Virus record (IMG/VR): IMGVR_UViG_2541047721_000002
Strand: one strand, 5' to 3'
Length of the DNA stretch: 11,667 bases
Source: a virus
Taxonomy: Duplodnaviria > Heunggongvirae > Uroviricota > Caudoviricetes
In this document: piece after piece, positions 1,505-11,667 of the stretch
Layout of the letters: each line of letters opens with the position of its first letter
Numbering within the stretch: position 1 is the stretch's first letter
Made by a program: the position numbers and the translations under genes
The notes under the pieces: model-generated
What the model saw: the letters and a program-made list of their open reading frames with translations, nothing else
Told to the model about the DNA's origin: nothing
The model's database searches: none

Positions 1505-1598
1505 CTTGTTGTTCACGTCAACTGGAAATAGGGTGCCTTTTCGACCTTTACCCTGGCAACCGATTGACGGGGAAGTTGCCTTCCCCGTCGCGGTTTCC

Positions 1599-1739
1599 TT
1601 ACTGCTTACACTGTAAGAACGCCGCAAACTCCGCTCCCCAGAAACTCATCCGTATTTCACACAGCGAACCGTGCAGCATCCAGATGATGAGGATTGCCGT
1701 CACGCAGAATGTGATGGCCGTAAGCGATTTTTGCGACAT
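1599..1739 (-). CDS. Hok/Gef-family type I toxin (small membrane-depolarising peptide), 46 aa
   Basis: Not in the ORF track (too short). Minus-strand ATG at 1739 preceded by AAGGAG RBS; translation MSQKSLTAITFCVTAILIIWMLHGSLCEIRMSFWGAEFAAFLQCKQ; TAA at 1601-1599. Single N-terminal hydrophobic helix plus the Hok-family C-terminal signature SLCE(I/L)R…(E)xAAF(L/M)AC, closest in my memory to HokA-type peptides. Overlapped by a longer out-of-frame upstream ORF (mok-like) and followed by a terminator. Confidence 0.7.
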   Translation of the reverse strand: MSQKSLTAITFCVTAILIIWMLHGSLCEIRMSFWGAEFAAFLQCKQ

Positions 1740-1842
1740 AGCGCTTGCTCCTTTTTCGGGGAGGCGCTAACCTATCACTTGCTGAGGGTAGATGGTTAGG
1801 GCCTCGGGTTAACGTTAAAGTTGACTCGGGGCCTTTCCACAT
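1657..1842 (-). CDS. mok-like overlapping reading frame (translational coupling ORF of a hok locus)
   Basis: 61-aa ORF starting at ATG 1842, overlapping the 5' part of the hok-like ORF in another frame, as in canonical hok/mok/sok loci. Its sequence has no recognisable domain; the call rests on arrangement only. Confidence 0.35.
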   Translation of the reverse strand: MWKGPESTLTLTRGPNHLPSASDRLAPPRKRSKRYVAKIAYGHHILRDGNPHHLDAARFAV

Positions 1843-1930
1843 CTGGCCTTCGGGTATTCCCTCCGACCATCAGCCGAAAGGCACCCGCGCGTAATCTATC
1901 GCTTTTTTGTTACTCCGGCAATTCTGCCTG

Positions 1931-2191
1931 TTAATTCTGAGATAAAGGCAAACTCATCTGATTGTTTCCCCTGTGTGAAGCTGGCAGCTCATGCCACGGG
2001 ATACCTTCTGAAGAGTGAACGCCGGAGGCGTGTTTTGATGTGAATTTATGGAAAGCTTCCAGTGTTGAGAAGCATACGCCGCATTCCAGATTGTTACACT
2101 GGTAATACTTTTGCCGCACGGTGTTTGAATCATTTTCCGGACGACTGGTGCGGATACGGGCAGATGCGCCACAAAGCGGACAACGGAACAT
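1931..2191 (-). CDS. ogr: Ogr/Delta-family zinc-finger late-gene transcriptional activator
   Basis: 86-aa ORF, ATG at 2191 with AAGGGAGG RBS 6 nt upstream; N-terminus MFRCPLCGASARIRTSR…YYQCNNLECGVCF has the C-x2-C…C-x4-C zinc-finger layout and closely resembles P2 Ogr / 186 B (MFHCPLC…ARTSR…HQCQN…C…F). Lies immediately downstream of D on the same strand, as in P2. Confidence 0.85.
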   Translation of the reverse strand: MFRCPLCGASARIRTSRPENDSNTVRQKYYQCNNLECGVCFSTLEAFHKFTSKHASGVHSSEGIPWHELPASHRGNNQMSLPLSQN

Positions 2192-2231
2192 AGCGACCTC
2201 CCTTAACGTGGTGCTGCCTATTCTAAGTTGC

Positions 2232-3341
2232 TCACTCTGTTTCCGCTATCCATTCCGGGATTTTTGCCTCAAGCTCAAGCTGCGTGGTAAAACCGCTGTT
2301 ATCAATGGTGTGCTCGGCTTTTGCAATGATCCAGTCCTGATTATCAATCTCGCTTTTAAATCCTGTTACCGTGCCATGCATTTCGGGGTAGAGTTCTGCA
2401 CGTCCACGCGCCAGCGTGATGGAGAATGATGCGGCTCCGCGTTGTAGTTGCTGCCACTTTGCCGCCGCTGCGCGTCTTGCTGCCTGCTCGTTCTGATAAG
2501 TCTTGCGTAACACAAACACATTGCCTTCCGCGCCTTCCATATAATCACCTTCGCGGCTGCTGCTTTTCTCCTTTTTGGGTTTTGGCGGTTTACGGCGTTT
2601 CACGCTGACTTTTTTCTTTTTCCCGTAATTAAGATCAAGCCAGTAAGCGCGTACCCCCGTATACGCTTCGCGGTCAGCAATGCGGAACTGATGGCGATCG
2701 CCGCTGCTGCGTGTGATGGCAAACGATGGCAACGGCTGGCCCTGTGCGTTCACGCCACCGCCGGGCATGATGAATAACAGATTACCGCTTTTTACCGTGG
2801 TGATTGCGCCCAGCATTTCCGCCATGCGCGTAAGGAAGGACATGTCGCTTTCTTCGGTCTGGTCGGCGTGGTCGATTTCGATATCCATCAGCATTTCGCT
2901 GATTTGCGGTTTCAGACCATACCGATGAGCGATGGCGGATACCACACGCTCAACGGTCACATCATGCCAGGACACCTCACGTTTAACGTTAAATTCATCC
3001 CGAAAATCTGCGCTTCTGGCTGAAACAGTCAGCCTGTCCGGCGGTCCTTCGTGAGCGATTTCATCAACAATGTAAGTGCCTTTTTCTGTCAGCGGTTCTC
3101 CTTTCCAGCCAATGAGAACCGTCAGGCGCGCGCCCCGTGGCGGTAGCTGCAACTGACCATCCGCATCATCCAGCGTGATGGTGAGCTGGTCCGCGTCAAA
3201 TCCCCGGTTGTCGGTCAGTGACAGGCTCATCAGGCGCTCTGCCACGCCTGACAGCGTTTTACCCTCCGCGAGAATATCAAAATCCGGCATTTTCACGGGG
3301 TCTGTGCCCTGACTGAGCAATTGCATGGTGGTATCGGTCAT
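2232..3341 (-). CDS. D: P2 gpD-like tail protein (tail-completion / late control D family)
   Basis: Minus-strand frame with stop at 2232. Motifs typical of P2 gpD are present (…SLSLTDNRGFDADQLTITLDDADG…, …SARSADFR…REVSWHD…, …AYTGV…, …REGDYMEGAEGNVF…, …QLQRG…FSI…GR…, …GFK…IDNQDW…NSGFTT.LELE…). I place the start at ATG 3341 (MTDTTMQLL…) because an AGGGAGG RBS lies 5-11 nt upstream; the ORF-track extension to 3473 has no RBS. Confidence 0.85.
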   Translation of the reverse strand: MTDTTMQLLSQGTDPVKMPDFDILAEGKTLSGVAERLMSLSLTDNRGFDADQLTITLDDADGQLQLPPRGARLTVLIGWKGEPLTEKGTYIVDEIAHEGPPDRLTVSARSADFRDEFNVKREVSWHDVTVERVVSAIAHRYGLKPQISEMLMDIEIDHADQTEESDMSFLTRMAEMLGAITTVKSGNLLFIMPGGGVNAQGQPLPSFAITRSSGDRHQFRIADREAYTGVRAYWLDLNYGKKKKVSVKRRKPPKPKKEKSSSREGDYMEGAEGNVFVLRKTYQNEQAARRAAAAKWQQLQRGAASFSITLARGRAELYPEMHGTVTGFKSEIDNQDWIIAKAEHTIDNSGFTTQLELEAKIPEWIAETE

Positions 3342-3498
3342 CTGTTCCCTCCCTGTGCGGCATAGTCGCATGTGCGTGCGGAGGGGGTTACTGCTTTTTG
3401 TTGTCGCCGGGTCGGGAGAACGGCGCAGGGGTGAGATTACGCGCGTGGTGGGTGATGATTGTTGCCGAATCATTTAACGGATACAAGGGGCTGAAGCT
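3342..3498. promoter_or_regulatory. divergent intergenic region between D (minus) and FI (plus); expected site of late promoter(s)
   Basis: 157-bp non-coding gap between two divergent start codons, each with a good RBS. I could not find a canonical Ogr-type TGT-N12-ACA element by eye, so promoter positions are unassigned. Confidence 0.4.
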
Positions 3499-4683
3499 AT
3501 GAGTGAAACTCGTTTTCATGGTGCCCGTGTTACGGAAAGTACCGACCTGGTAACAGCGATTAATGATGTTGATTCCAGCGTTATCGGTATCGTGGCAACG
3601 GCGGATGATGCGGACGCGAAGCTGTTCCCGCTGAACAAGCCCACACTGCTGACCCGCGTCAATGACGTGCTGGGAAAATGCGGGACAACGGGGACGCTTT
3701 ATCGTGCGCTTAAGGCCATCGCAGACCAGGTGAGCACAAAGGTGATCGTCGTTCGCGTGGCTGAACACAAAGAAGAAAACGGAAAGACGCAGGATCAACT
3801 GGTTATCGGTGGTTCTGAATCTGACGGCAGCTATACGGGGATGTATGCGCTGCTTGTTGCAGAGCAGGATGAAAGCATCGGATACCGTCCGCGTATTCTG
3901 GCCGCGCCGGAGCTGGACACGGAGGCGGTGACAAAATCCCTGTGCGTGATTGCGGGTAAACTGCGCGCGTTTGTGTATGCCACATGTCATGGTTGTAACA
4001 CGATGGCTGAGGCGATTACCTACCGCCAGAAATTCAACGAACGTGAGGTGATGCTCTTATGGCCTGACTTCATCGCCTACAACCCGAAAAGTGGCAAAAA
4101 CGAAACGTTCCCCGCGCCTGCTTATGCGTGCGGCCTTCGTGCGTACATTGACCATGAGCAGGGCTGGCACAAATCGCTGTCCAACGTTCCGGTTAAAAAT
4201 GTGCTGGGGATGTCGAGGCATGTGTTCTGGTCGTTACAGGCCGAAGACAGTGATGCCAACAGCCTCAACAACAAAGAAATCACGACCATTATTCGTCGTA
4301 ACGGGTTCCGCTTCTGGGGCAACCGCACACCGGAAACGAACGCCTACATCTTTGAGGTGTATACCCGAACCGCACAGGTGCTGGCTGATTCAATTGCGGA
4401 AGCGCAGTTTGAAACCATCGACAGTCCACTGACACCTGCGAACGTGAAGGATGTTATCAGCGCCATCAGAGCAAAACTGGATTCGCTGGTTACTGTCGGG
4501 AAACTGATTGGTGCGGAGTGCTGGTATGACGTGGTGGATAACAGCACCACGGGTTTACGTCAGGGGCGTGTGCGTATTCGCTACAAATATACGCCCGTTC
4601 CTCCGCTGGAAGACATGGAGCTTTACCAGTCGTTTACTGATGAATTCTTTGGTCCCGCATTTGCGGTGCTGGGAGGTGCCTGA
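3499..4683 (+). CDS. FI: contractile tail sheath protein (P2 gpFI family)
   Basis: 394-aa ORF, ATG at 3499 with AAGGGG RBS. Blocks co-linear with P2 FI: …DADA.LFPLNKP.L…, …GTLY.AL.AIADQ…, …KLRAFVYA…, …YRQ.F..RE.M..WPDF…, …DHEQGWHK.LSNV…, …IRR.GFRFWGNRT…, …Y.RTAQV.AD…, …I.Y.YTPVPPLE…. Confidence 0.93.
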   Translation: MSETRFHGARVTESTDLVTAINDVDSSVIGIVATADDADAKLFPLNKPTLLTRVNDVLGKCGTTGTLYRALKAIADQVSTKVIVVRVAEHKEENGKTQDQLVIGGSESDGSYTGMYALLVAEQDESIGYRPRILAAPELDTEAVTKSLCVIAGKLRAFVYATCHGCNTMAEAITYRQKFNEREVMLLWPDFIAYNPKSGKNETFPAPAYACGLRAYIDHEQGWHKSLSNVPVKNVLGMSRHVFWSLQAEDSDANSLNNKEITTIIRRNGFRFWGNRTPETNAYIFEVYTRTAQVLADSIAEAQFETIDSPLTPANVKDVISAIRAKLDSLVTVGKLIGAECWYDVVDNSTTGLRQGRVRIRYKYTPVPPLEDMELYQSFTDEFFGPAFAVLGGA

Positions 4684-5195
4684 TGGCTGTACCAAAACAT
4701 CTTCGCTTTTTTACGTTGTTTGTGGATGGTGAAAACGAAGTGGGTAAAGTGACATCCGTCACGCCACCCAAACTGACGCGCAAAACCGACAGCTATCGTG
4801 GTGGTGGCATGATGGGGGCGGTAAGTATTGATCTCGGTCTGGACGACTCCGCGCTTGATGCGAGTTTTGTCATGGGGGGAGCTGTTCGTGCGCTGTTCCT
4901 TAAATATGGCGGCACGATTGACGGCACGCTGCTGCGTTTTGCGGGTGAATACTACACCGATGCAGAAAGCGATCTGTATGAAATCGAGATGCGCGGGCGT
5001 GTGACGGAAATTGATATGGGGGAGGCCAAACAGGGCGAAGCCACATCACACACTTACGCTGTCAAAAACACCTACTACAAGCTGAGCGTTAACGATCGCC
5101 CGCTGTGGGAAATCGACCTGTTGAACCACATCTACCGGAAGGACGGCAAGGACATTGTGCCTGACCGCATTCGTTCCGCGCTTGGGCTTGGCTGA
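4683..5195 (+). CDS. FII: tail tube protein (P2 gpFII family)
   Basis: 170-aa ORF whose ATG (4683-4685) overlaps the FI stop TGA (4681-4683) in a TGATG arrangement; size and position immediately after the sheath gene match P2 FII. Confidence 0.88.
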   Translation: MAVPKHLRFFTLFVDGENEVGKVTSVTPPKLTRKTDSYRGGGMMGAVSIDLGLDDSALDASFVMGGAVRALFLKYGGTIDGTLLRFAGEYYTDAESDLYEIEMRGRVTEIDMGEAKQGEATSHTYAVKNTYYKLSVNDRPLWEIDLLNHIYRKDGKDIVPDRIRSALGLG

Positions 5196-5250
5196 TAAGT
5201 AATATGCAGGCGGCGCAGTGCGTCGCCTCTGACTGAAAAGGAGACAACTG

Positions 5251-5625
5251 ATGAAAGATATCGATACTGAAACCCGGAATAACACCGTAGCGGATGATGT
5301 GACGTCAGGTGAGGATATGGCTGTCGAACGTGGTGTAAAACTTTCCCGGCCAATTGAGCGTGGTGCCGAAAAAATCACATATGTGGAGATCACCGGGGCT
5401 ATTGAACAGGCTGGATCCCTGCGTGGTCTGTCTCTGTCTGATGTGCTGAATCTGAAAGCGGATACCATGTTCACGCTGTTGCCTCGCGTGACCTCGCCAC
5501 GACTGGATGAAGTGATGATTAAAAAAATGTCGTCACGCGATTTTATTCAGTTGTGCGCTGTGGCTGTAAATTTTATGAGCGAGCCAGACTCTGGCGCGAA
5601 GAGCGTGCAGGAGACGGCAGCGTAA
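5251..5625 (+). CDS. E: tail assembly chaperone E (P2 gpE; lambda gpG analogue)
   Basis: 124-aa ORF, ATG at 5251 preceded by AAAAGGAGA RBS; sits between the tube gene and the tape measure gene, with an overlapping -1 frame ORF running to 5789 as expected for E/E'. Confidence 0.75.
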   Translation: MKDIDTETRNNTVADDVTSGEDMAVERGVKLSRPIERGAEKITYVEITGAIEQAGSLRGLSLSDVLNLKADTMFTLLPRVTSPRLDEVMIKKMSSRDFIQLCAVAVNFMSEPDSGAKSVQETAA

Positions 5626-5789
5626 TCACCCTGGTGTGCTTTGAGCACATCGAAGATCTGGTGGCGGATATTGCCGCCATTTTTAACTGGTCGCCCGCCG
5701 AAATCTTCATGATGACGCCCGGCGAAGTGGTTAGCTGGCGCGAGCGGGCGGCACTTCGCAGCGGGAATGCAGACAATGAAGACTCTTGA
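5523..5789 (+). CDS. E: E' extension frame, expressed as an E+E' fusion by -1 programmed ribosomal frameshift (P2 gpE+E'; lambda gpGT analogue)
   Basis: The -1 frame relative to E is open from 5523 to TGA at 5787-5789 and overlaps the T start, as in P2. Candidate slippery sites in the overlap: A AAT TTT at 5568-5574 (fits X_XXY_YYZ in the E frame) and the A7 run at 5521-5527. The downstream E' part (SVITLVCFEHIEDLVADIAAIFNWSPAEIFMMTPGEVVSWRERAALRSG) looks protein-like. Confidence 0.6.
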   Translation, partial: KNVVTRFYSVVRCGCKFYERARLWREERAGDGSVITLVCFEHIEDLVADIAAIFNWSPAEIFMMTPGEVVSWRERAALRSGNADNEDS

Positions 5790-8583
5790 TATCCGGGTCG
5801 CTTTCAGCGCCGTTGACAGGCTGACCCGGCCTGCCGAAAACGCCCGCCGCCTGATGGGGCAGTTTGGTGACTCCATCCAGCGAACGCAGGGGGCGATCAA
5901 AAATCTCGAGCGTCAGGCGCGTTCATTTGAGCGCGCCCGTGACGCTGTCAGTAAAGCGGATGCGGGCATCGTGAAAGCACGACGCCAGCTTAACGCCCTT
6001 AATCAGTTACAACGCACGGGTACAGTGCTCAGCGAAAAACAACAAAAGCTGATGCAGCAGTTAAGCACCCGGCTTGAACGCCTGAATGAATCGCGCACAC
6101 GGGAAATTCAGAAAATGCGGGAACTTGGCGGAGAGCTGAAACGCCACGGCATTTCCCTGACAGGCAGCGATAACACCATCCAGCAGGCCATCAGACGCAC
6201 CGAACAGTACAACAACCAGCTTGAACGCGAACGGCAGGCGCTTGCGCGTGTAACGCGGGCGCGTGAGCGGTATTCGCGCGCGCAGGAAACCGCGGGAAAA
6301 CTGAAAACAGGTGGTGCGCTGGCAATTGGTGCTGCAGCGGCTGGCGGCTATGCTGCCGGGCGTTTTTTGCAGCCTGCGATCGGGTTCGGCAAAGAGATGT
6401 CCCGCGTTCAGGCACTGACGCGAATCGACAAAAACAGCCCGCAGTTTAAGGCGCTGCGTGAGCAGGCGTTAAAACTTGGTTCTGAAACACAGTTTACTGC
6501 GAGTGATGCCGCCAGTGGGCAGAGCTTTCTGGCAATGGCTGGTTTTACTCCGCAGGCCATTCAGGCCGCATTGCCCGGTGTTCTTAATATGGCGCTGGCA
6601 GGTGGCGTCGAACTCGGCGAGACGGCTGATATAGGCTCCAATATCCTCACACAGTTCAACCTGACAGCCGATCAAATGGACCGGGTTGGCGATACGCTGA
6701 CAGCAGCATTCACCCGGACCAATACTGATTTACGCGCGCTGGGCGAAACCATGAAGTATACCGGTCCGGTTGCCGCAAAACTTGGTATCAGTCTTGAAGA
6801 AGCGGCGGCCATGGCCGGGATGCTTGCCAATAATGGTCTTCGCGGAAGCGATGCTGGTACGGCCATGCGCGCAAGTCTGTCCCGCCTTGCATCACCGCCA
6901 AAAGCTGCGGCTGATGCACTGAAAGAGCTGGGGGTGTCAGTTGCTGACGCCAGAGGCAAAATGCGCCCGATGGAGGATGTGCTGCTTGATCTCTATAAGG
7001 CGACACAAAAATACGGACAGGTGGACCAGGTTTCCTTCTTCAAGGACATCGCCGGAGAAGAGGCGTTCGTTGGTTTACAGACGCTTGTTGCGGCGGCTGG
7101 TTCAGGAGAGCTGCAAAAACTGACCAGAGAATTGCAGGGGGCAAGGGGAGAGGCCGATCGCGTTGCAAAAGTAATGGCCGATAATCTTGATGGGGACCTG
7201 AAAAATCTCGACAGCGCATGGGAAGGTCTTCGTATTCGCATCAGTGATCTGGTTGACGGTCCGCTGCGTTCTGTCACGCAGTGGCTCACGCGGGTGCTTG
7301 AAAAAATCACCTCGCTGGCGCAGGCCCATCCGGTACTGACGCGCCAGCTACTGATAGCAGGCGGTGCGTTGCTGGCAATGACTGCAACGATTGGCTCGTT
7401 GTCGCTGGTTATTGGGGTGCTTTACGGAAAGCTGGCCACCCTGCGTCTTGGTTTTGACATTCTTACCCGGTCAATGAATGTCGTCCGGGTGTTGCCTGCG
7501 CTGTGGGGAATGCTGACGGGTTCTGTTTCTTTGCTGGGAGGCGCTATCGGGGCGCTGTTCAGTCCGGTTGGATTGATTGCTGCTGCGTTTGTGGCTGCGG
7601 CGGTTCTCATCTGGAAATACTGGGAACCCATTAAGGCGTTTTATGCCGGGGTGTTCAACGGGATTATGGAAAGGCTGACCCCGTTGCGCGAAACCTTTGA
7701 ACGGTTTGGTCCTGTTTTTGACGCAATCGGAAGCGGGATCAGCCAGGTGTTTAACTGGTTTAAATCGCTGCTGTCACCGATGGAGTCCAGCAAGGAAACG
7801 CTGGATAAATGTACCAGTGCTGGCGAGATATTCGGTAACGTTCTTGGTGGCGCGTTACAGCTTGTTCTGACGCCTGCAAAAATGTTGCTGGATACGCTGG
7901 CGTGGATACTTGAAAAACTCGGTGTTCTTCCGGATGAAGCGGAAAGGGCGAGAAAGAAAATCGAAGACGTACAGCGTGCGGCCATTCTTCAGGACAAGGT
8001 TACCTTGCTTCAGGGGGACCTGGCGAAAATCAATCCGCCGAAGCCTGTGGAAAATGGCAATGGCACCGGAGGTGATAACCCCAAAGACAATAAACCGCTC
8101 ACAGACAGCAATACCGGGACGCTGCGCAGACTCAGCAAAATTGCTGATAACACAGGTAAGCTGGTTGAGGAGACGAAAAAACGCATTGGCCCCGGCGATA
8201 TTGTCTTTAAAAACCTGCCCCGAGCACTTGCTGTTCGTGGGGAGTGGCAGGAGCGGAAGATTGCGCAGGTCAGTAAGCCTGCCCCCGCAATTAATATCAC
8301 ACCCGTGGTCCCGGCTCCGCTGCCTCCGGCGCTGGTCCCTGTTGTTGCGGCCAGCTCCCGCCCGGTGGCGGAGGCCATACGATCTCCAGTGGCATCAGTT
8401 CCTGTAACTTCCCGTAACCGGGAGCCTGTTGCCTCCGGATTTGGTGGTGAAATTCATGTTCATCTGCATAACGTTGTTACGCAGAATCCCCGCGAACTGG
8501 CGAAACTGGTCGGTGAAATGGTCAGGGCAGAAATGGAACGGCGTGCCCGTGCCGGGCGTGGCAGTTTTTACGATAAAGATTGA
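5767..8583 (+). CDS. T: tail tape measure protein (P2 gpT family)
   Basis: 938-aa ORF, the largest in the cluster, directly after E/E'. It has an N-terminal coiled-coil region rich in Q/R/E/L, a central hydrophobic segment (~7320-7640) and a Pro/Val/Ala-rich C-terminus. Start could be ATG 5767 or ATG 5776. Confidence 0.9.
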   Translation: MQTMKTLDIRVAFSAVDRLTRPAENARRLMGQFGDSIQRTQGAIKNLERQARSFERARDAVSKADAGIVKARRQLNALNQLQRTGTVLSEKQQKLMQQLSTRLERLNESRTREIQKMRELGGELKRHGISLTGSDNTIQQAIRRTEQYNNQLERERQALARVTRARERYSRAQETAGKLKTGGALAIGAAAAGGYAAGRFLQPAIGFGKEMSRVQALTRIDKNSPQFKALREQALKLGSETQFTASDAASGQSFLAMAGFTPQAIQAALPGVLNMALAGGVELGETADIGSNILTQFNLTADQMDRVGDTLTAAFTRTNTDLRALGETMKYTGPVAAKLGISLEEAAAMAGMLANNGLRGSDAGTAMRASLSRLASPPKAAADALKELGVSVADARGKMRPMEDVLLDLYKATQKYGQVDQVSFFKDIAGEEAFVGLQTLVAAAGSGELQKLTRELQGARGEADRVAKVMADNLDGDLKNLDSAWEGLRIRISDLVDGPLRSVTQWLTRVLEKITSLAQAHPVLTRQLLIAGGALLAMTATIGSLSLVIGVLYGKLATLRLGFDILTRSMNVVRVLPALWGMLTGSVSLLGGAIGALFSPVGLIAAAFVAAAVLIWKYWEPIKAFYAGVFNGIMERLTPLRETFERFGPVFDAIGSGISQVFNWFKSLLSPMESSKETLDKCTSAGEIFGNVLGGALQLVLTPAKMLLDTLAWILEKLGVLPDEAERARKKIEDVQRAAILQDKVTLLQGDLAKINPPKPVENGNGTGGDNPKDNKPLTDSNTGTLRRLSKIADNTGKLVEETKKRIGPGDIVFKNLPRALAVRGEWQERKIAQVSKPAPAINITPVVPAPLPPALVPVVAASSRPVAEAIRSPVASVPVTSRNREPVASGFGGEIHVHLHNVVTQNPRELAKLVGEMVRAEMERRARAGRGSFYDKD

Positions 8584-8589
8584 GGAGTC

Positions 8590-9084
8590 ATGGCCATGAT
8601 GATGATCTATGGCATGTTTGTTTTTGAGCTGCGCACATTGCCGCATCAGCAGTTACAGCAAAACAAAAGCTGGCGGCATGTGAAAAATGAACGCGTTAAT
8701 CGTTCAGCAAGCTGGCAGTATATCGGCGCAGGTGATGATCGCATCGTGCTTTCCGGCGTGCTTTATCCTGAAATTACAGGTGGCGAAGTGTCGCTTTCGT
8801 TGCTGACCACGCAGGCATATACAGGACGCCCCTGGCCTCTGATTGATGGTGTCGGGCAGATTTACGGCATGTATGTACTGACTGAAACGAATACGACCCG
8901 TTCCGAGTTTGATCGCTACGGTAAGGCGAAAAAGATAGAATTTTCACTGACTCTTGAACGCTGTGATGAGGATTTGCGGGAGCGCCTGCAATCCTCATCG
9001 TTCAGTGATATGCTGTCCGGCTTCAAAGATAAGGTCACATCATCCCTTAACAGCGCGGCCAGCTCCGTTAAAGGGCTGTTTTGA
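8590..9084 (+). CDS. U: tail protein U (P2 gpU family)
   Basis: 164-aa ORF, ATG at 8590 with GAGGAG RBS, immediately after T. N-terminus (M)MMIYGMFVFELRTLP… and overall size match P2 gpU. Confidence 0.88.
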   Translation: MAMMMIYGMFVFELRTLPHQQLQQNKSWRHVKNERVNRSASWQYIGAGDDRIVLSGVLYPEITGGEVSLSLLTTQAYTGRPWPLIDGVGQIYGMYVLTETNTTRSEFDRYGKAKKIEFSLTLERCDEDLRERLQSSSFSDMLSGFKDKVTSSLNSAASSVKGLF

Positions 9085-9092
9085 TTAACGCA

Positions 9093-9120
9093 AAACCGCT
9101 AATGGTCAGATTAGCGGTTT
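9093..9120. terminator. bidirectional hairpin between convergent U and invertase genes
   Basis: AAACCGCTAAT-ggtcag-ATTAGCGGTTT 11-bp stem followed by TCATTTTCC; the invertase stop codon (9111-9113) lies inside the stem. Confidence 0.5.
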
Positions 9121-9710
9121 TCATTTTCCTGAGTCTGCCTGGTTGTTTCTTCAGCCTGTATATCGCCTACAGGGTGATAACGATAAATCGTCGATATGCC
9201 GATGTCGTAAATGATCGCCAGTTGTTTCCTGTCATGACCGTTTTTAATCAGCCTCGCTATTTGCTCGTGTTGTTCTTTTGTCAACTTCGGGCGACGTCCG
9301 CCAATGCGTCCTTGTGCGCGTGCTGCTGCCAGCCCGGCCAGTGTACGCTCTACAATTAATTCACGTTCCATTTCGGCTAAAGCCCCCATGACGTGAAAAA
9401 AGAAACGCCCCATGGGTGTTGATGTGTCAATGCTGTCCGTCAGACTACGGAAATTAACACCTTTTTCCCGCAATTCCTCAATAAGCGTGATCAGGTGTTT
9501 CATACTTCTGCCCAGTCTGTCCAGCTTCCAGACAACCAGCGTATCTCCTTCTGATAGCGTTCTGAGCAGTTTTTTCAATCCCGGTCTGGTTGATTTCGTT
9601 CCGCTGATTTTATCTTCAAAAATCAGTTCACATCCTGCGCAGTTCAGTGCATTGCGTTGTAAATCCGTGTTCTGGTCGTTTGTTGACACACGAATATAGC
9701 CAATTTGCAT
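9111..9710 (-). CDS. serine DNA invertase, Gin/Pin/Hin/Cin family
   Basis: Minus-strand ORF. I place the start at ATG 9710 (MQIGYIRVSTNDQNTDLQRNAL…), which gives ~199 aa. The N-terminus and catalytic region (…GDTLVVWKLDRLGRSMKHLI…FRSLTDSIDTS.PMGRFFFHVMGALAEMERELI.ERT.AGLAAAR..GRIGGR.PKLT…) are nearly identical in pattern to E. coli Pin and Mu Gin, including the active-site serine in YIRVST. A C-terminal helix-turn-helix region follows. Confidence 0.93.
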   Translation of the reverse strand: MQIGYIRVSTNDQNTDLQRNALNCAGCELIFEDKISGTKSTRPGLKKLLRTLSEGDTLVVWKLDRLGRSMKHLITLIEELREKGVNFRSLTDSIDTSTPMGRFFFHVMGALAEMERELIVERTLAGLAAARAQGRIGGRRPKLTKEQHEQIARLIKNGHDRKQLAIIYDIGISTIYRYHPVGDIQAEETTRQTQENENR

Positions 9711-9764
9711 AAAAAACATCCTCTTTGTTTCGTGAAAAATACAGAGTTGGTATAGGTAGGGATA

Positions 9765-9790
9765 AAAACGAAAACGTTGGTTTAGGAGAA
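9765..9790. other. putative left crossover site of the invertible segment (gix/hix/pix-like)
   Basis: AAAACGAAAACG-TT-GGTTTAGGAGAA. The inner half-site in complement reads TTCTCCTAAACC, close to the half-site of known Gin/Hin sites (TTCCTGTAAACC / TTATCAAAAACC) as I remember them. The outer half is degenerate. The core dinucleotide falls at the V-G codons before the conserved LGEG motif. Confidence 0.45.
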
Positions 9791-10138
9791 GGCTCGGCGC
9801 TACCCGTTGGTGTGCCTGTTCCGTGGCCCACCGCCACACCGCCAGCAGGCTGGTTAAAGTGCGACGGGCGCGCCTTTACAAAAGAACAATATCCTGTTCT
9901 GGCCAGAGCCTACCCGACCCTCCGTCTTCCCGATTTACGCGGTGAGTTTATCCGTGGATGGGACGACGGGCGCAAAGTTGATACAGGACGTAAGTTGCTG
10001 TCCGCACAAGGGGCAACTATGTTATCCGCTTTTGTTGTTGATTATTCCAAACAGGTCACTACGCTAGGCTCGAGGAAAGTCGGCATGGGAGACACTATAG
10101 CAGATTACCAACCAGACGTTAGTGATGGCAACTTTTAG
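9776..10138 (+). CDS. silent alternative tail-fibre C-terminal cassette (Sv'-like), promoterless in this orientation
   Basis: Open frame …VGLGEGSALPVGVPVPWPTATPPAGWLKCDGRAFTKEQYPVLARAYPTLRLPDLRGEFIRGWDDGRKVDTGRKLLSAQG…DGNF*. The first ~70 aa are near-identical to the expressed cassette on the opposite strand and include the tail-fibre collar-type PDLRG…RGWD motif. There is no ATG or RBS; the frame begins at the crossover site. Confidence 0.6.
   Translation, partial: VGLGEGSALPVGVPVPWPTATPPAGWLKCDGRAFTKEQYPVLARAYPTLRLPDLRGEFIRGWDDGRKVDTGRKLLSAQGATMLSAFVVDYSKQVTTLGSRKVGMGDTIADYQPDVSDGNF
9818..9965. repeat. left copy of ~148-bp near-identical inverted repeat inside the invertible segment
   Basis: By manual reverse-complement alignment, 9818-9965 matches the complement of 11193-11340 with only a few mismatches, whereas flanking coding sequence drops to roughly 80% identity with synonymous differences. 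Confidence 0.7.
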
Positions 10139-10863
10139 ATACTTGATGCGTCCTCATTCGGCGCTCCAAGCTTAGCAATGTGGGATAATGTATCAGAGGG
10201 CACCCTCCAGATCGCAATTAAAAGTAGCTTTACGACGGCTAGCTATGGCTCAACCGGCAGGATTGAATGTAATTTCAGGCTAACTGATTTCTAATGAGTA
10301 GCACAGCTCTACTGCGTTCAGACCGTATATCTAATCTAGCAGGCGGTATCATTTTGTAGCTTCTTGACGTGGAAGCCCGGGAATAGACCTCAGTTTCTGT
10401 TTGATATGACGGCCTGACGCTGTGGCCTGTGTCACCTTTTGGTGGCGTTGCACTCTCGCAACCTCCATTGCGGCGCTTCGTTTCCGGTACTGATAGGTTG
10501 CCCGGGTCTGAGCGTTCCACTTATCACAGCGGCTAGATGGTTTTCATCTGGTAGAGTGGGACGGGCAATCAGCTTATCCGGCAGGGAGATTGGGGTTAGC
10601 ACTCTCCCAGAAAAATGCCGGCCAGGCGCGGGGATCAGTGACATGCTCACGCCTGTTTAACGGGTCCGGACGGCAAGCCACGTGACGCAAAGTAGCTTCC
10701 CACACTGCAACGCCGGCCGAGGGTGACACAGTAGCTGCCGCAAGTGGAACTTACCACCCTGAGGATGAGTTGTATTCCCAGTCTTACACCACATGGTGCG
10801 ATAAAATTAAATCGCGCGCTACAGTATAGCTACCAGTTTCATGCAGAACATATCTGCTAGTCA
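10139..10863. other. ~725-bp ORF-free core of the invertible segment; function unknown
   Basis: No ORF over 81 aa in any frame, and those present are low-complexity with no RBS. It lies where tail-fibre assembly chaperone genes sit in Mu G, P1 C and e14 P segments. Contains at least 4 CTAG tetranucleotides (10239, 10336, 10533, 10857), a motif normally scarce in enterobacterial DNA. Confidence 0.5.
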
Positions 10864-11667
10864 CTAGACATCACTTAGCCTGTAGTACCGTTCAAACTTA
10901 CGGGTTGAACGGGTTCTCCCCGCCGTCAAGCTATTTTTGATTGCGGTAATAAGAGGGCCAGGCATAACATTGTCCGACATTTCAAAGCTTTGTTCGCCTA
11001 AAGATGTTCCATCAGGTATTCTCTTTCTGCCCTCACTAACGCCCATTTTGGTATAGGCTTTAGTGTCACCAAATCCGAATTGCGCAGAGCCGCCCGTACT
11101 GTCATCGCTGTAATAATCCAGCTCAGCTCCGCTTACGATCGTCCCCTCTTGAAATGAAAGTACCGTACGCCCGGTATCAACCTTGCGACCACCGTCCCAT
11201 CCACGGATAAACTCACCGCGCAAATCGGGAAGACGGAGGGTCGGGTAGACTCTGGCCAGAACAGGATATTGTTCTTTGGTGAACGTAGCTCCGTTGCACT
11301 GTAACCAGCCTGCTGGCGGTGTGGCAGTGGGCCACGGAACAGGTACACCAACAGGCAATGCAGAGCCTTCCCCCAAACCAAGGTAATTGAGGACATCTTT
11401 TATACTGCCCTTAGCGATAATAGCGCGACCAATAGCTGTAAGGGTTGCCAGCGCTGCGCGGTCTGCTCCGGTAAAATAAGGCAACCGATCTGCTGCAGTG
11501 GCAAGTCCTGCCAGAGCAGTGAGCGTGGCATCTGCCGGTTGTTTTCCGTTTGCCAGATCGTATGCAGCCTTGACCGCTTTCGGTGTGGCGGCCAGTATTT
11601 CAGACGTGCTGTTGGTGGCGCTACTGAGTTGAACAAGGCCTTTTCGTGCCGTAGTCGCATCCTGAGC
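10864..11667 (-). CDS. tail fibre protein, 3' portion (expressed orientation; 5' part lies beyond the right window edge)
   Basis: I translated the minus-strand frame by hand from 11667 down to TAG at 10866-10864 and it is open throughout: …SSATNSTSEILAATPKAVKAAYDLANGKQPADATLTALAGLATAADRLPYFTGADRAALATLTAIGRAIIAKGSIKDVLNYLGLGEGSALPVGVPVPWPTATPPAGWLQCNGATFTKEQYPVLARVYPTLRLPDLRGEFIRGWDGGRKVDTGR…YRLSDV*. The ORF-track start at 11484 is a TTG inside this frame, not the true start. Contains the collar-type motif shared by Mu S, P1 S and e14 StfE-type fibres. Confidence 0.85.
   Translation of the reverse strand, partial: AQDATTARKGLVQLSSATNSTSEILAATPKAVKAAYDLANGKQPADATLTALAGLATAADRLPYFTGADRAALATLTAIGRAIIAKGSIKDVLNYLGLGEGSALPVGVPVPWPTATPPAGWLQCNGATFTKEQYPVLARVYPTLRLPDLRGEFIRGWDGGRKVDTGRTVLSFQEGTIVSGAELDYYSDDSTGGSAQFGFGDTKAYTKMGVSEGRKRIPDGTSLGEQSFEMSDNVMPGPLITAIKNSLTAGRTRSTRKFERYYRLSDV
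11193..11340. repeat. right copy of ~148-bp near-identical inverted repeat
   Basis: Reverse complement of 11193-11340 aligns with 9818-9965, e.g. ACCAAAGAACAATATCCTGTTCTGGCCAGAGTCTACCCGACCCTCCGTCTTCCCGATTT versus ACAAAAGAACAATATCCTGTTCTGGCCAGAGCCTACCCGACCCTCCGTCTTCCCGATTT. Confidence 0.7.
11368..11393. other. putative right crossover site of the invertible segment (gix/hix/pix-like)
   Basis: TTCCCCCAAACC-AA-GGTAATTGAGGA. The inner half-site TTCCCCCAAACC is in inverted orientation to the left site. The core falls at the L-G codons (CTT GGT) before LGEG in the expressed fibre, in the same codon phase as the left site, so inversion would give an in-frame fusion. Confidence 0.45.

Follow-up and report, generated by a model that had tools for sequence, protein, structure and literature searches.

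Inversion of the FI-to-U tail block as a lineage-level gene order in P88-like Peduoviridae prophages, with a predicted two-way late promoter between D and FI

The window analysed here, the whole stretch of 11,667 nucleotides of viral DNA, is by sequence comparison the right end of a P88-like prophage (Peduoviridae, probably Xuanwuvirus) next to serS. Its tail genes FI to U are oriented opposite to D and ogr, and comparison with related genomes identifies this arrangement as ordinary inherited lineage synteny and not as a rearrangement of one strain. Very likely, the inverted order is fixed and ancestral in a clade made up of Xuanwuvirus, Reginaelenavirus and unnamed relatives across Enterobacterales, a confidence that is meant for the explanation as a whole, including a promoter shared by D and FI. 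Conservation of the gap between these two genes and analogy with phage P2 indicate that D probably shares a two-way Ogr-dependent late promoter with FI and hence is not promoterless.

The layout given in the initial annotation, with D and ogr on the minus strand, FI to U on the plus strand and a divergent gap of 157 bp in between, was confirmed by open reading frame and Pfam analyses:

1931..2191, minus strand: ogr, late-gene activator of 86 aa (Pfam Ogr_Delta, E 5e-14)
2232..3341, minus strand: D, intact tail/baseplate hub protein of 369 aa (Pfam Phage_GPD)
3342..3498: divergent D/FI intergenic region of 157 bp, proposed bidirectional late promoter
3499..4683, plus strand: FI, tail sheath of 394 aa (Pfam Phage_sheath_1, Gp18_domIII_N, sheath_1C)
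4683..5195, plus strand: FII, tail tube of 170 aa (Pfam Phage_tube, E 2e-45)
5251-5625, plus strand: E, tail assembly chaperone, paired with E', an extension in the -1 frame to 5789
5767..8583, plus strand: T, tape measure protein (Pfam PhageMin_Tail, E 2e-56)
8590..9084, plus strand: U, tail protein of 164 aa (Pfam Phage_P2_GpU)

The full gene set of a P2-like contractile-tail late module is thus present (FI, FII, E/E', T, U, D and an Ogr/Delta activator), and the colinear one-strand order FI-FII-E-T-U-D-ogr is absent. Each of the seven genes between 1931 and 9120 has its full length; apart from E (72 %), they are 94-99 % identical to those of P88. Identity to P88 is 97 % for FI (45 % to P2 FI), 97 % for FII, 99 % for U and 94 % over 935 aa for T, the start of which corresponds to position 5776 in relatives. 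E is 35 % identical to P2 E, and a GpE-family coding sequence is annotated in both P88 and strain U15A; AAATTTT at 5568-5574 is a possible slippery site for the E/E' frameshift. D starts with the ATG at 3341, preceded by a Shine-Dalgarno sequence at 3347-3353, and its product is 99 % identical to P88 D over the full length. Identity to P2 gpD is 49 % from residue 19 onward, and the first 12 to 18 residues align neither with P2 D nor across subclades. The truncated D annotated in U15A was considered as a sign of decay and rejected: the DNA of that strain encodes a D identical to the intact 369-aa protein of the window, and the annotation is a quirk. The ogr gene starts 40 bp downstream of D on the same strand; its product carries, in translation, the zinc finger C-X2-C-X24-C-X4-C and shares 42 % identity with the Ogr of P2 across 53 aa. 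An Rfam scan of the window yielded only a sub-threshold sok match and nothing inside the tail block.

Some 10 kb of the window is phage DNA, and from position 1528 to its end it aligns with Xuanwuvirus phages at 91-94 % identity, in a small number of collinear pieces; the same range of DNA identity applies to 1528-9700. Single pieces cross both block junctions in Shae_phiSM, PhiR44_2 and Chuche. Membership of this genus is given by high genome-wide nucleotide identity to P88 or P884B11, with a threshold of roughly 70 % in ICTV practice. Its phages (P88, P884B11, 500465-2, 520873, Shae_phiSM, PhiR44_2 and Chuche) have identical order and strands, running hok, ogr, D / FI-FII-E-E'-T-U / invertase / fibre segment, and a D/FI gap of 156-157 bp with a TGT-N12-AGA box as in the window. 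The strands annotated in P88 and phiSM are those of the window, and the Xuanwuvirus order of D, FI to U, invertase, invertible fibre segment and H-I-J-W-V was matched in strands and order. Strain U15A carries a near-identical full prophage with the genome plan of P88, in which the rest of the order is P2-like. The window differs from its relatives in the fibre cassette, which is unlike that of P88 and the other Xuanwuvirus phages, and in adjoining serS, whereas P88 integrates with a different 14-bp attP.

Active phages are found among these relatives. P88 is mitomycin-inducible and plaque-forming, with a burst size of ~65, and its gene order is not discussed in the paper describing it (PMC5285337); phiSM is released spontaneously and lysogenises K-12 (PMC6456863). 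Intact, inducible phages thus share exactly this order, a finding that the initial annotation had itself named as the mark of ordinary lineage synteny. Prophages of the P88-like type next to serS are to be treated as potentially active.

The reading of the arrangement as a distinct lineage-level gene order was borne out well beyond P88, phiSM and the five other phage isolates in which it was found. Among 5426 complete E. coli genomes, 267 contain at least 80 % of the window at a single place. At 80/80 IMG/VR loci, FI and D diverge across a gap of 156-157 bp; these loci were kept from a D scan at 99 % identity or more and were used for counting the arrangement, not for conservation. A scan of genome contigs gave 47 loci in ~35 named Enterobacterales species with D proteins 64-99 % identical to that of the window, and FI-FII to T was divergent from D at all 43 loci that had sufficient flank and a detectable FI. 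Of 40 related loci, 36 have an Ogr-family reading frame after D; tblastn with the Ogr of the window missed ogr in distant loci, where it was recovered by a combined Pfam and Cys-motif search. In Reginaelenavirus (e.g. Klebsiella phage Kp4880-3), D is only 70 % identical and the FI-U block is likewise inverted and divergent from D, with canonical TGT-N12-ACA in both the P/O and the FI/D gaps. Literature searches turned up no mention of the inverted block or of a promoter between D and FI.

The P2 annotation confirmed that the order in this phage is colinear, FI-FII-E-T-U-D-ogr, with the fibre gene upstream as had been claimed: H and G lie further upstream and fun(Z) stands between G and FI. Its F operon (FI-FII-E-E'-T-U-D) followed by ogr holds the same gene set as the window, each gene being 33-48 % identical, and in both, ogr comes after D at the end of the prophage. 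Relative to P2, the segment from the promoter through FI to U is inverted with respect to D-ogr and V-W-J-I-H, the N-terminus of D has been remodelled, and P88 lacks a separate V promoter gap because S and V overlap. The colinear order was also kept in Kapieceevirus, Firavirus and Aresaunavirus, which with the genus of P2 make four sampled genera with D identities of at most 52 %. This order characterises P2 and several genera and not the Peduoviridae as a whole. With those four genera sampled outside the clade, the inverted order most likely has a single origin, in which the segment from the PF promoter and FI to U was turned round. A different reshuffling of tail genes is known from Stenotrophomonas phage Smp131, in which late promoters have moved, TGT-N12-ACA-like boxes were kept and one box serves PP'/PO'; there, V has moved beside the F genes and D is still colinear (PMC3931495).

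The gap between D and FI was predicted to contain the following elements:

3402..3419: putative Ogr-type activator box TGTCGCCGGGTCGGGAGA (TGT-N12-AGA), in the alignment column in which 17 relatives have the canonical box
3362..3367, minus strand (read 3367-3362): predicted -10 element for D, GACTAT, with a predicted start near 3355
3454..3459, plus strand: predicted -10 element for FI, GATGAT, with a predicted start near 3466

The statement that 3342-3498 holds no canonical TGT-N12-ACA element was correct for the exact string, but a box with one mismatch is present at 3402-3419; the earlier failure to find it is explained by the demand for an exact match, which is too narrow a criterion in searches for Ogr-type late promoters. 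The box sits in a conserved TTTGTTGTC...AGAA block (3397-3420). Alignment of 40 D/FI gaps revealed a conserved TTTGTTGTC-N-A[CG]A and two -10-like hexamers, with the N12 and other positions varying. The box column reads TGT-N12-ACA at 17 of these loci, AGA at 20 and AGG at 3. The A2 and T6 positions of the hexamer on the FI side are kept at 40/40 loci and those on the D side at 39/40, and a spacer of 34 nt separates the box from the hexamer at 39/40 and 37/40 loci, respectively. With a -10-like hexamer 34 nt away on either side, the box fits the geometry of Ogr/Delta late promoters, the start sites being predictions. At promoters of this class transcription requires Ogr, which contacts the alpha subunit of RNA polymerase; their box is centred ~55 nt upstream of the start, and they possess a -10 element with no -35 consensus. 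The TGT-N12-ACA string is not strictly class-defining, since the PF and PO boxes of P2 read TGT-N12-CCA and only 17/40 relatives are canonical.

The motif on its own is no evidence, as its loose form TGT-N12-AVA shows no enrichment, occurring 23 times in the window versus 17.9 +/- 5.2 expected, and positional conservation was relied on instead. Exact TGT-N12-ACA matches occur elsewhere in the window at 4221, 9726, 10036 and 10771, all in genes or the fibre region. A promoter scan detected no sigma-70 consensus promoter in 3342-3498, as expected for activator-dependent promoters. A matrix derived from the boxes in the D/FI gaps, run over the 35.8-kb P88 genome, gave the D/FI site 23.2 bits, the P/O site 19.9 and the next match 11.2. 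The same matrix did not recover the boxes of P2 itself among its high ranks and is thus clade-specific. Within a genome, the box variant is the same at P/O and D/FI, AGA at both in P88 and ACA at both in Kp4880-3. As a side observation, an association of box variant with Ogr sequence is confounded with phylogeny.

The closest known counterpart of this gap is PP/PO of P2, in which one dyad box (3063-3080 in P2 coordinates) lies midway between divergent late operons with -10-like hexamers 34 nt to each side and no -35 consensus; the annotated starts, 3016 and 3127, are each 55.5 nt from the centre of the box. The D side of the window has the geometry of P2 PP, for which the start site has been mapped, and the FI side matches P2 PF and PO; the PF promoter also has a similar leader (ACTCA..TAAC). 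The half-site differs, being AGA in the window and CCA in P2 compared with the consensus ACA. The architecture of PP/PO thus recurs between D and FI in this clade as a putative promoter known from sequence.

A single inversion could account for this. One ancestral breakpoint would have been immediately upstream of the activator box of PF. The other would have been at the U/D junction, which is in keeping with the unalignable 12-18 residues at the N-terminus of D. The inversion would have placed the D start ~60 bp from the box, facing the opposite direction. Because the box is two-fold symmetric and acts from about -55, one box can drive transcription in both directions, as at P2 PP/PO. Ogr would bind TGT-N12-AGA at 3402-3419 and activate FI-U rightward from GATGAT and D-ogr leftward from GACTAT, and this model provides testable starts near 3466 and near 3355, respectively. 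Late transcription of D would read on into ogr, like that of the P2 F operon, and the late genes of the clade would run from two bidirectional promoters, P/O and D/FI. We lean towards the view that one inversion turned the one-way PF into a second PP/PO-like promoter, that two boxes run four late units and that the leftward D transcript, by carrying ogr, provides late positive feedback. Literature searches found no paper describing such a two-box, four-unit architecture. If the promoter model holds, the clade is a natural example of a symmetric activator site that lets an inversion split an operon with its regulation kept. The proposal that D is cut off from its normal promoter stands only insofar as D is no longer downstream of FI; D adjoins the FI box divergently with a conserved -10-like hexamer at 34 nt.

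An alternative that accepts the order as lineage-typical is that D-ogr is not transcribed from the shared box and uses an independent, Ogr-independent, differently activated or ogr-type constitutive promoter. This would agree with a GC-rich block, CACGCGCGCG, which is conserved on the D side and could be the site of another factor, and with a good -10 element, TAGAAT (2227-2222, minus strand), between D and ogr, from which ogr may have its own promoter as in P2; moreover, the FI and D starts are predictions and the D leader would be short (~13 nt in the window, ~11-15 nt across loci). We regard it as unlikely, since the hexamer on the D side mirrors the FI side and P2 PP in its conservation and distance from the box, and the gap contains only one strong box and no sigma-70 consensus.

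Much less probable than a separate D promoter is a recent ~5.7-kb inversion in a decaying, defective prophage with loss of D expression, a reading prompted by the order being unlike that of P2 and by a neighbouring fibre segment that is partly without open reading frames. It was refuted, and the class of decaying remnants rejected for 1931-9120, because the seven genes are full length and close to those of P88, the plaque-forming P88 and phiSM as well as ~35 named species have the same order, intergenic elements are conserved, and inverted repeats are absent from the boundaries. The open reading frame-free stretch 10018-11149 is a corrupted sequence with uniform random substitution and not a product of natural decay. 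Departure from the gene order of P2 or 186 is no evidence of prophage decay.

The presence of an invertase gene abutting the block at 9111 raised the further possibility that FI-U is a switchable segment, flipped at secondary sites. The features concerned are:

9092..9121: candidate hairpin terminator AAAACCGCTAAT-loop-ATTAGCGGTTTT (terminator scan: 12 pairs, 6-nt loop)
9111..9710, minus strand: serine DNA invertase of the Gin/Cin/Hin type (Pfam Resolvase, HTH_7)
9774-10130 and 11028-11384: inverted repeats of the invertase, bounding the invertible segment 9774-11384

The convergence of U and the invertase at a shared hairpin with a 12-bp stem was confirmed. The hairpin lies between the stop codon of U and the 3' end of the invertase gene, which it overlaps; it was reported for the plus strand (U), and by symmetry the invertase transcript may use it as well. 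The invertase serves the adjacent fibre segment and not the FI-U block: its own repeats are those listed above, and the search for invertase-like sites at the block boundaries that had been suggested detected no inverted repeats or crossover-like sites pairing 3342-3498 with 9085-9110. Since, in addition, Reginaelenavirus has the inverted block without an invertase or an invertible fibre segment and the opposite orientation was never seen among 80 IMG/VR and 43 genome loci, a switchable block is hardly credible. That the arrangement stems from faulty assembly or scaffolding of the source genome, to which nothing specific points beyond the artificial-looking 10018-11149 elsewhere in the window, can be practically dismissed, as the window is collinear across both junctions with 267 complete E. 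coli genomes and with seven phage records, all of them independent.

The gene layout proposed in the initial annotation, with ogr and D on the minus strand and FI-FII-E-T-U on the plus strand, proved accurate in every coordinate. Beyond serS, the remainder of the window is phage DNA, and the features are arranged as follows:

1-1293, serS (Pfam)
about 1556-1907, hok/sok-like locus
1931-2191, minus strand, ogr
2232-3341, minus strand, D
3342-3498, the divergent intergenic region of 157 bp between D and FI (D/FI gap)
3499-4683, plus strand, FI
4683-5195, plus strand, FII
5251-5625, plus strand, E
5767-8583, plus strand, T
8590-9084, plus strand, U
9092-9121, hairpin with a 12-bp stem
9111-9710, minus strand, serine invertase
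9774-10130 and 11028-11384, inverted repeats bounding the invertible fibre segment
past the fibre segment, minus strand, constant part of the fibre gene H

In P2, by contrast, FI-FII-E-E'-T-U-D-ogr are colinear, with V-W-J-I-H-G farther upstream and fun(Z) between G and FI.

Public phage genomes classified by ICTV already show the arrangement of the window. Using megablast against phage records, the stretch from 1528 to the window end was found to be 91-94% identical to members of Xuanwuvirus, the P88-like genus of the Peduoviridae (P884B11, 500465-2, P88, Shae_phiSM, 520873, PhiR44_2, and Chuche), and both junctions of the FI-U block were crossed by single collinear pieces in some of these alignments. 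The annotated records of P88 and phiSM have the same strands as the window, in the order D, FI to U, invertase, fibre segment, and H-I-J-W-V. P88 can be induced with mitomycin C and forms plaques, with a burst of ~65 (PMC5285337), while phiSM is released spontaneously from Citrobacter rodentium and has lysogenised K-12 strains of E. coli (PMC6456863). Since the gene order of these active phages is that of the window, intact, inducible phages sharing it exist, which the initial annotation had named as the finding that would speak against a rearrangement. A literature search yielded no paper commenting on the inverted FI-U block or on a D/FI promoter. In the GenBank record of Shae_phiSM the product names are shifted, D being labelled ogr and FI being labelled D. 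The phiSM virion was described as that of a siphovirus, its tail being non-contractile (PMC6456863), whereas its genome carries P2-type sheath and tube genes.

At least 80% of the window was present in one place in 267 of 5426 complete E. coli genomes, in which serS-adjacent copies with the same layout are common. The copy in E. coli strain U15A is 98.9% identical to the window and belongs to a complete P2-like prophage. In RefSeq, its D (locus L003, 21234-22087, corresponding to window 2232-3341) is split into a truncated protein of 266 aa and a pseudogene fragment; the DNA itself codes for a D of 369 aa that matches the window protein exactly, so that the shortened form is an annotation quirk and not decay.

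A search of IMG/VR with the D protein of the window gave 492 relatives, 80 of which were kept; FI was divergent from D in all 80, across a gap of 156-157 bp. A one-genome-per-species collection contributed 47 loci in which D was 64-99% identical, about 35 named species of Enterobacterales being represented. These relatives occurred in genera including Salmonella, Trabulsiella, Symbiopectobacterium, Edwardsiella, Serratia, Kluyvera, Erwinia, Enterobacter, Pantoea, Mixta, Kosakonia, Citrobacter, Pectobacterium, Brenneria, Klebsiella, Raoultella, Yokenella, and Rouxiella. FI-FII to T was divergent from D in 43/43 loci of this collection with detectable FI, and an Ogr-family gene followed D in 36/40 loci (Pfam). 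Two loci 98-99% identical to the prophage of the window (L087 and L128) came from assemblies labelled Vagococcus sp. and Planococcaceae (Firmicutes), probably through contamination of those assemblies. The Klebsiella phage Kp4880-3 (Reginaelenavirus; D 70% identical) has FI-U inverted as in the window and lacks the invertase, while the colinear order is kept in Peduovirus P2, Kapieceevirus, Firavirus, and Aresaunavirus, of which D is at most 52% identical. With these four genera sampled as the outgroup, the simplest reading of the sequences would be that one old inversion defines the clade. Of the two explanations first considered, a lineage-level gene order is thus the one borne out, as the order is common to P88, phiSM, and every locus with detectable FI.

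The other, an inversion in a decaying prophage, was rejected: all seven proteins of 1931-9120 are full length relative to P88, at 94-99% identity (72% for E), and no inverted repeats pairing the two boundaries of the FI-U block were found upon searching. Switching of the block by the invertase was rejected on the same lack of repeats and on the single orientation seen among the loci surveyed.

The old inversion may have carried its promoter along. Because the FI promoter and leader are similar to P2 PF, the promoter would have travelled together with the inverted block. One breakpoint would lie at the U/D junction, which fits the divergent N-terminus of D (the window protein aligns with P2 D from residue 19 on only, and the first 12-18 residues differ among subclades), and the second just upstream of the PF box. 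Smp131 is another P2-like phage with rearranged tail genes that has retained its late boxes (PMC3931495).

As first reported, the exact Ogr-type activator element (box) TGT-N12-ACA is absent from 3342-3498. This test is too strict, because the P2 PF and PO boxes read TGT-N12-CCA. The statement that D is cut off from its promoter was misleading: the exact box is indeed missing, but TGT-N12-AGA and a D-side hexamer are present. Upon alignment of 40 D/FI gaps, a TTTGTTGTC-N-A[CG]A block was conserved within otherwise variable sequence. Of the 40 boxes, 17 were TGT-N12-ACA, 20 were TGT-N12-AGA (the one at 3402-3419 of the window among them), and 3 were TGT-N12-AGG; N12 was variable. Two hexamers flank it:

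3454-3459, plus strand, FI-side -10-like hexamer, GATGAT in the window and conserved as GAxxAT in the 40-gap alignment
3367-3362, minus strand, its D-side mirror image, GACTAT in the window and conserved as xAxxAT

The box-to-hexamer spacer was 34 nt in 37/40 loci on the D side and 39/40 on the FI side, and hexamer positions A2 and T6 were retained in 39/40 and 40/40, respectively. GCGTGA-like blocks at the -35 position, a CGAACTCA leader, and Shine-Dalgarno sequences were also conserved. The PP/PO pair of P2 has exactly the same design, with one box (3063-3080), hexamers 34 nt off on either side, and annotated starts (3016 and 3127, P2 coordinates) each 55.5 nt from the box centre. When a weight matrix built from the D/FI boxes was scanned across the whole P88 genome, the best-scoring place was the D/FI gap (23.2 bits), followed by the P/O gap (19.9 bits), the next match scoring 11.2. 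The variant agrees between the D/FI and P/O boxes of one genome (AGA in P88, ACA in Kp4880-3). Scanning the D/FI gap gave no sigma-70 consensus promoter, as expected for activator-dependent promoters; the loose box motif was not enriched in the window. The Ogr sequence (CSIT versus CSRS, CSET, or CGVC) associates with the box variant, but this association tracks phylogeny.

On the strength of the conserved box and hexamers, the PP/PO geometry, and the matrix ranking, we infer that the D/FI gap is a predicted bidirectional Ogr-dependent promoter, a modest, testable addition. FI would start near 3466 and D near 3355, the predicted D leader being short (about 13 nt). The ogr and F-operon transcripts of P2 share the terminator annotated downstream of ogr, and a leftward D-ogr transcript would preserve this transcriptional link. 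Ahead of the ogr Shine-Dalgarno sequence, the 40-bp D-ogr spacer (2192-2231) contains a good -10 (TAGAAT, 2227-2222, minus strand), so that ogr may also be transcribed from a promoter of its own, as in P2.

A perfect palindromic TGT-N12-ACA (TGTTTCGTGAAAAATACA) lies at 9726-9743, in the interval that separates the invertase start (9710) from the left repeat (9774). Its position does not fit a -55 late promoter of any intact gene, and it could be a chance occurrence or a regulatory site. In P88 (L005, 19576-20789 and 18978-19116), S overlaps V, so that a separate V promoter of the P2 type could not be accommodated, and the genes from head to fibre may make up a single, very long late operon; upstream of R, at 18639-18662, the matrix scan gave a box-like match that was weak (8.8 bits).

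The hok/sok-type toxin-antitoxin locus occupies part of the stretch from ogr to the prophage end. In relatives, a Hok/Gef CDS is annotated at roughly 1597-1737 (minus strand), and a sok match at 1726-1886 (minus strand) scored 42.8 bits, under the Rfam gathering score of 59. Relative to U15A, conservation across the window is lowest at 1556-1907 (90-92%); Stx phages also match this region.

Within the invertible fibre segment, 434 substitutions (38%) and no indels separate 10018-11149 from its U15A counterpart, with flanks 100% identical. The stretch contains no ORF above 81 aa and has no megablast match among the 5426 E. coli genomes; both fibre C-termini are destroyed, as is the tail fibre assembly gene. 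The changes are even over the 12 substitution types and three codon positions, with geometric spacing, a pattern that suggests random corruption or synthetic noise of artificial or erroneous origin and not natural divergence.
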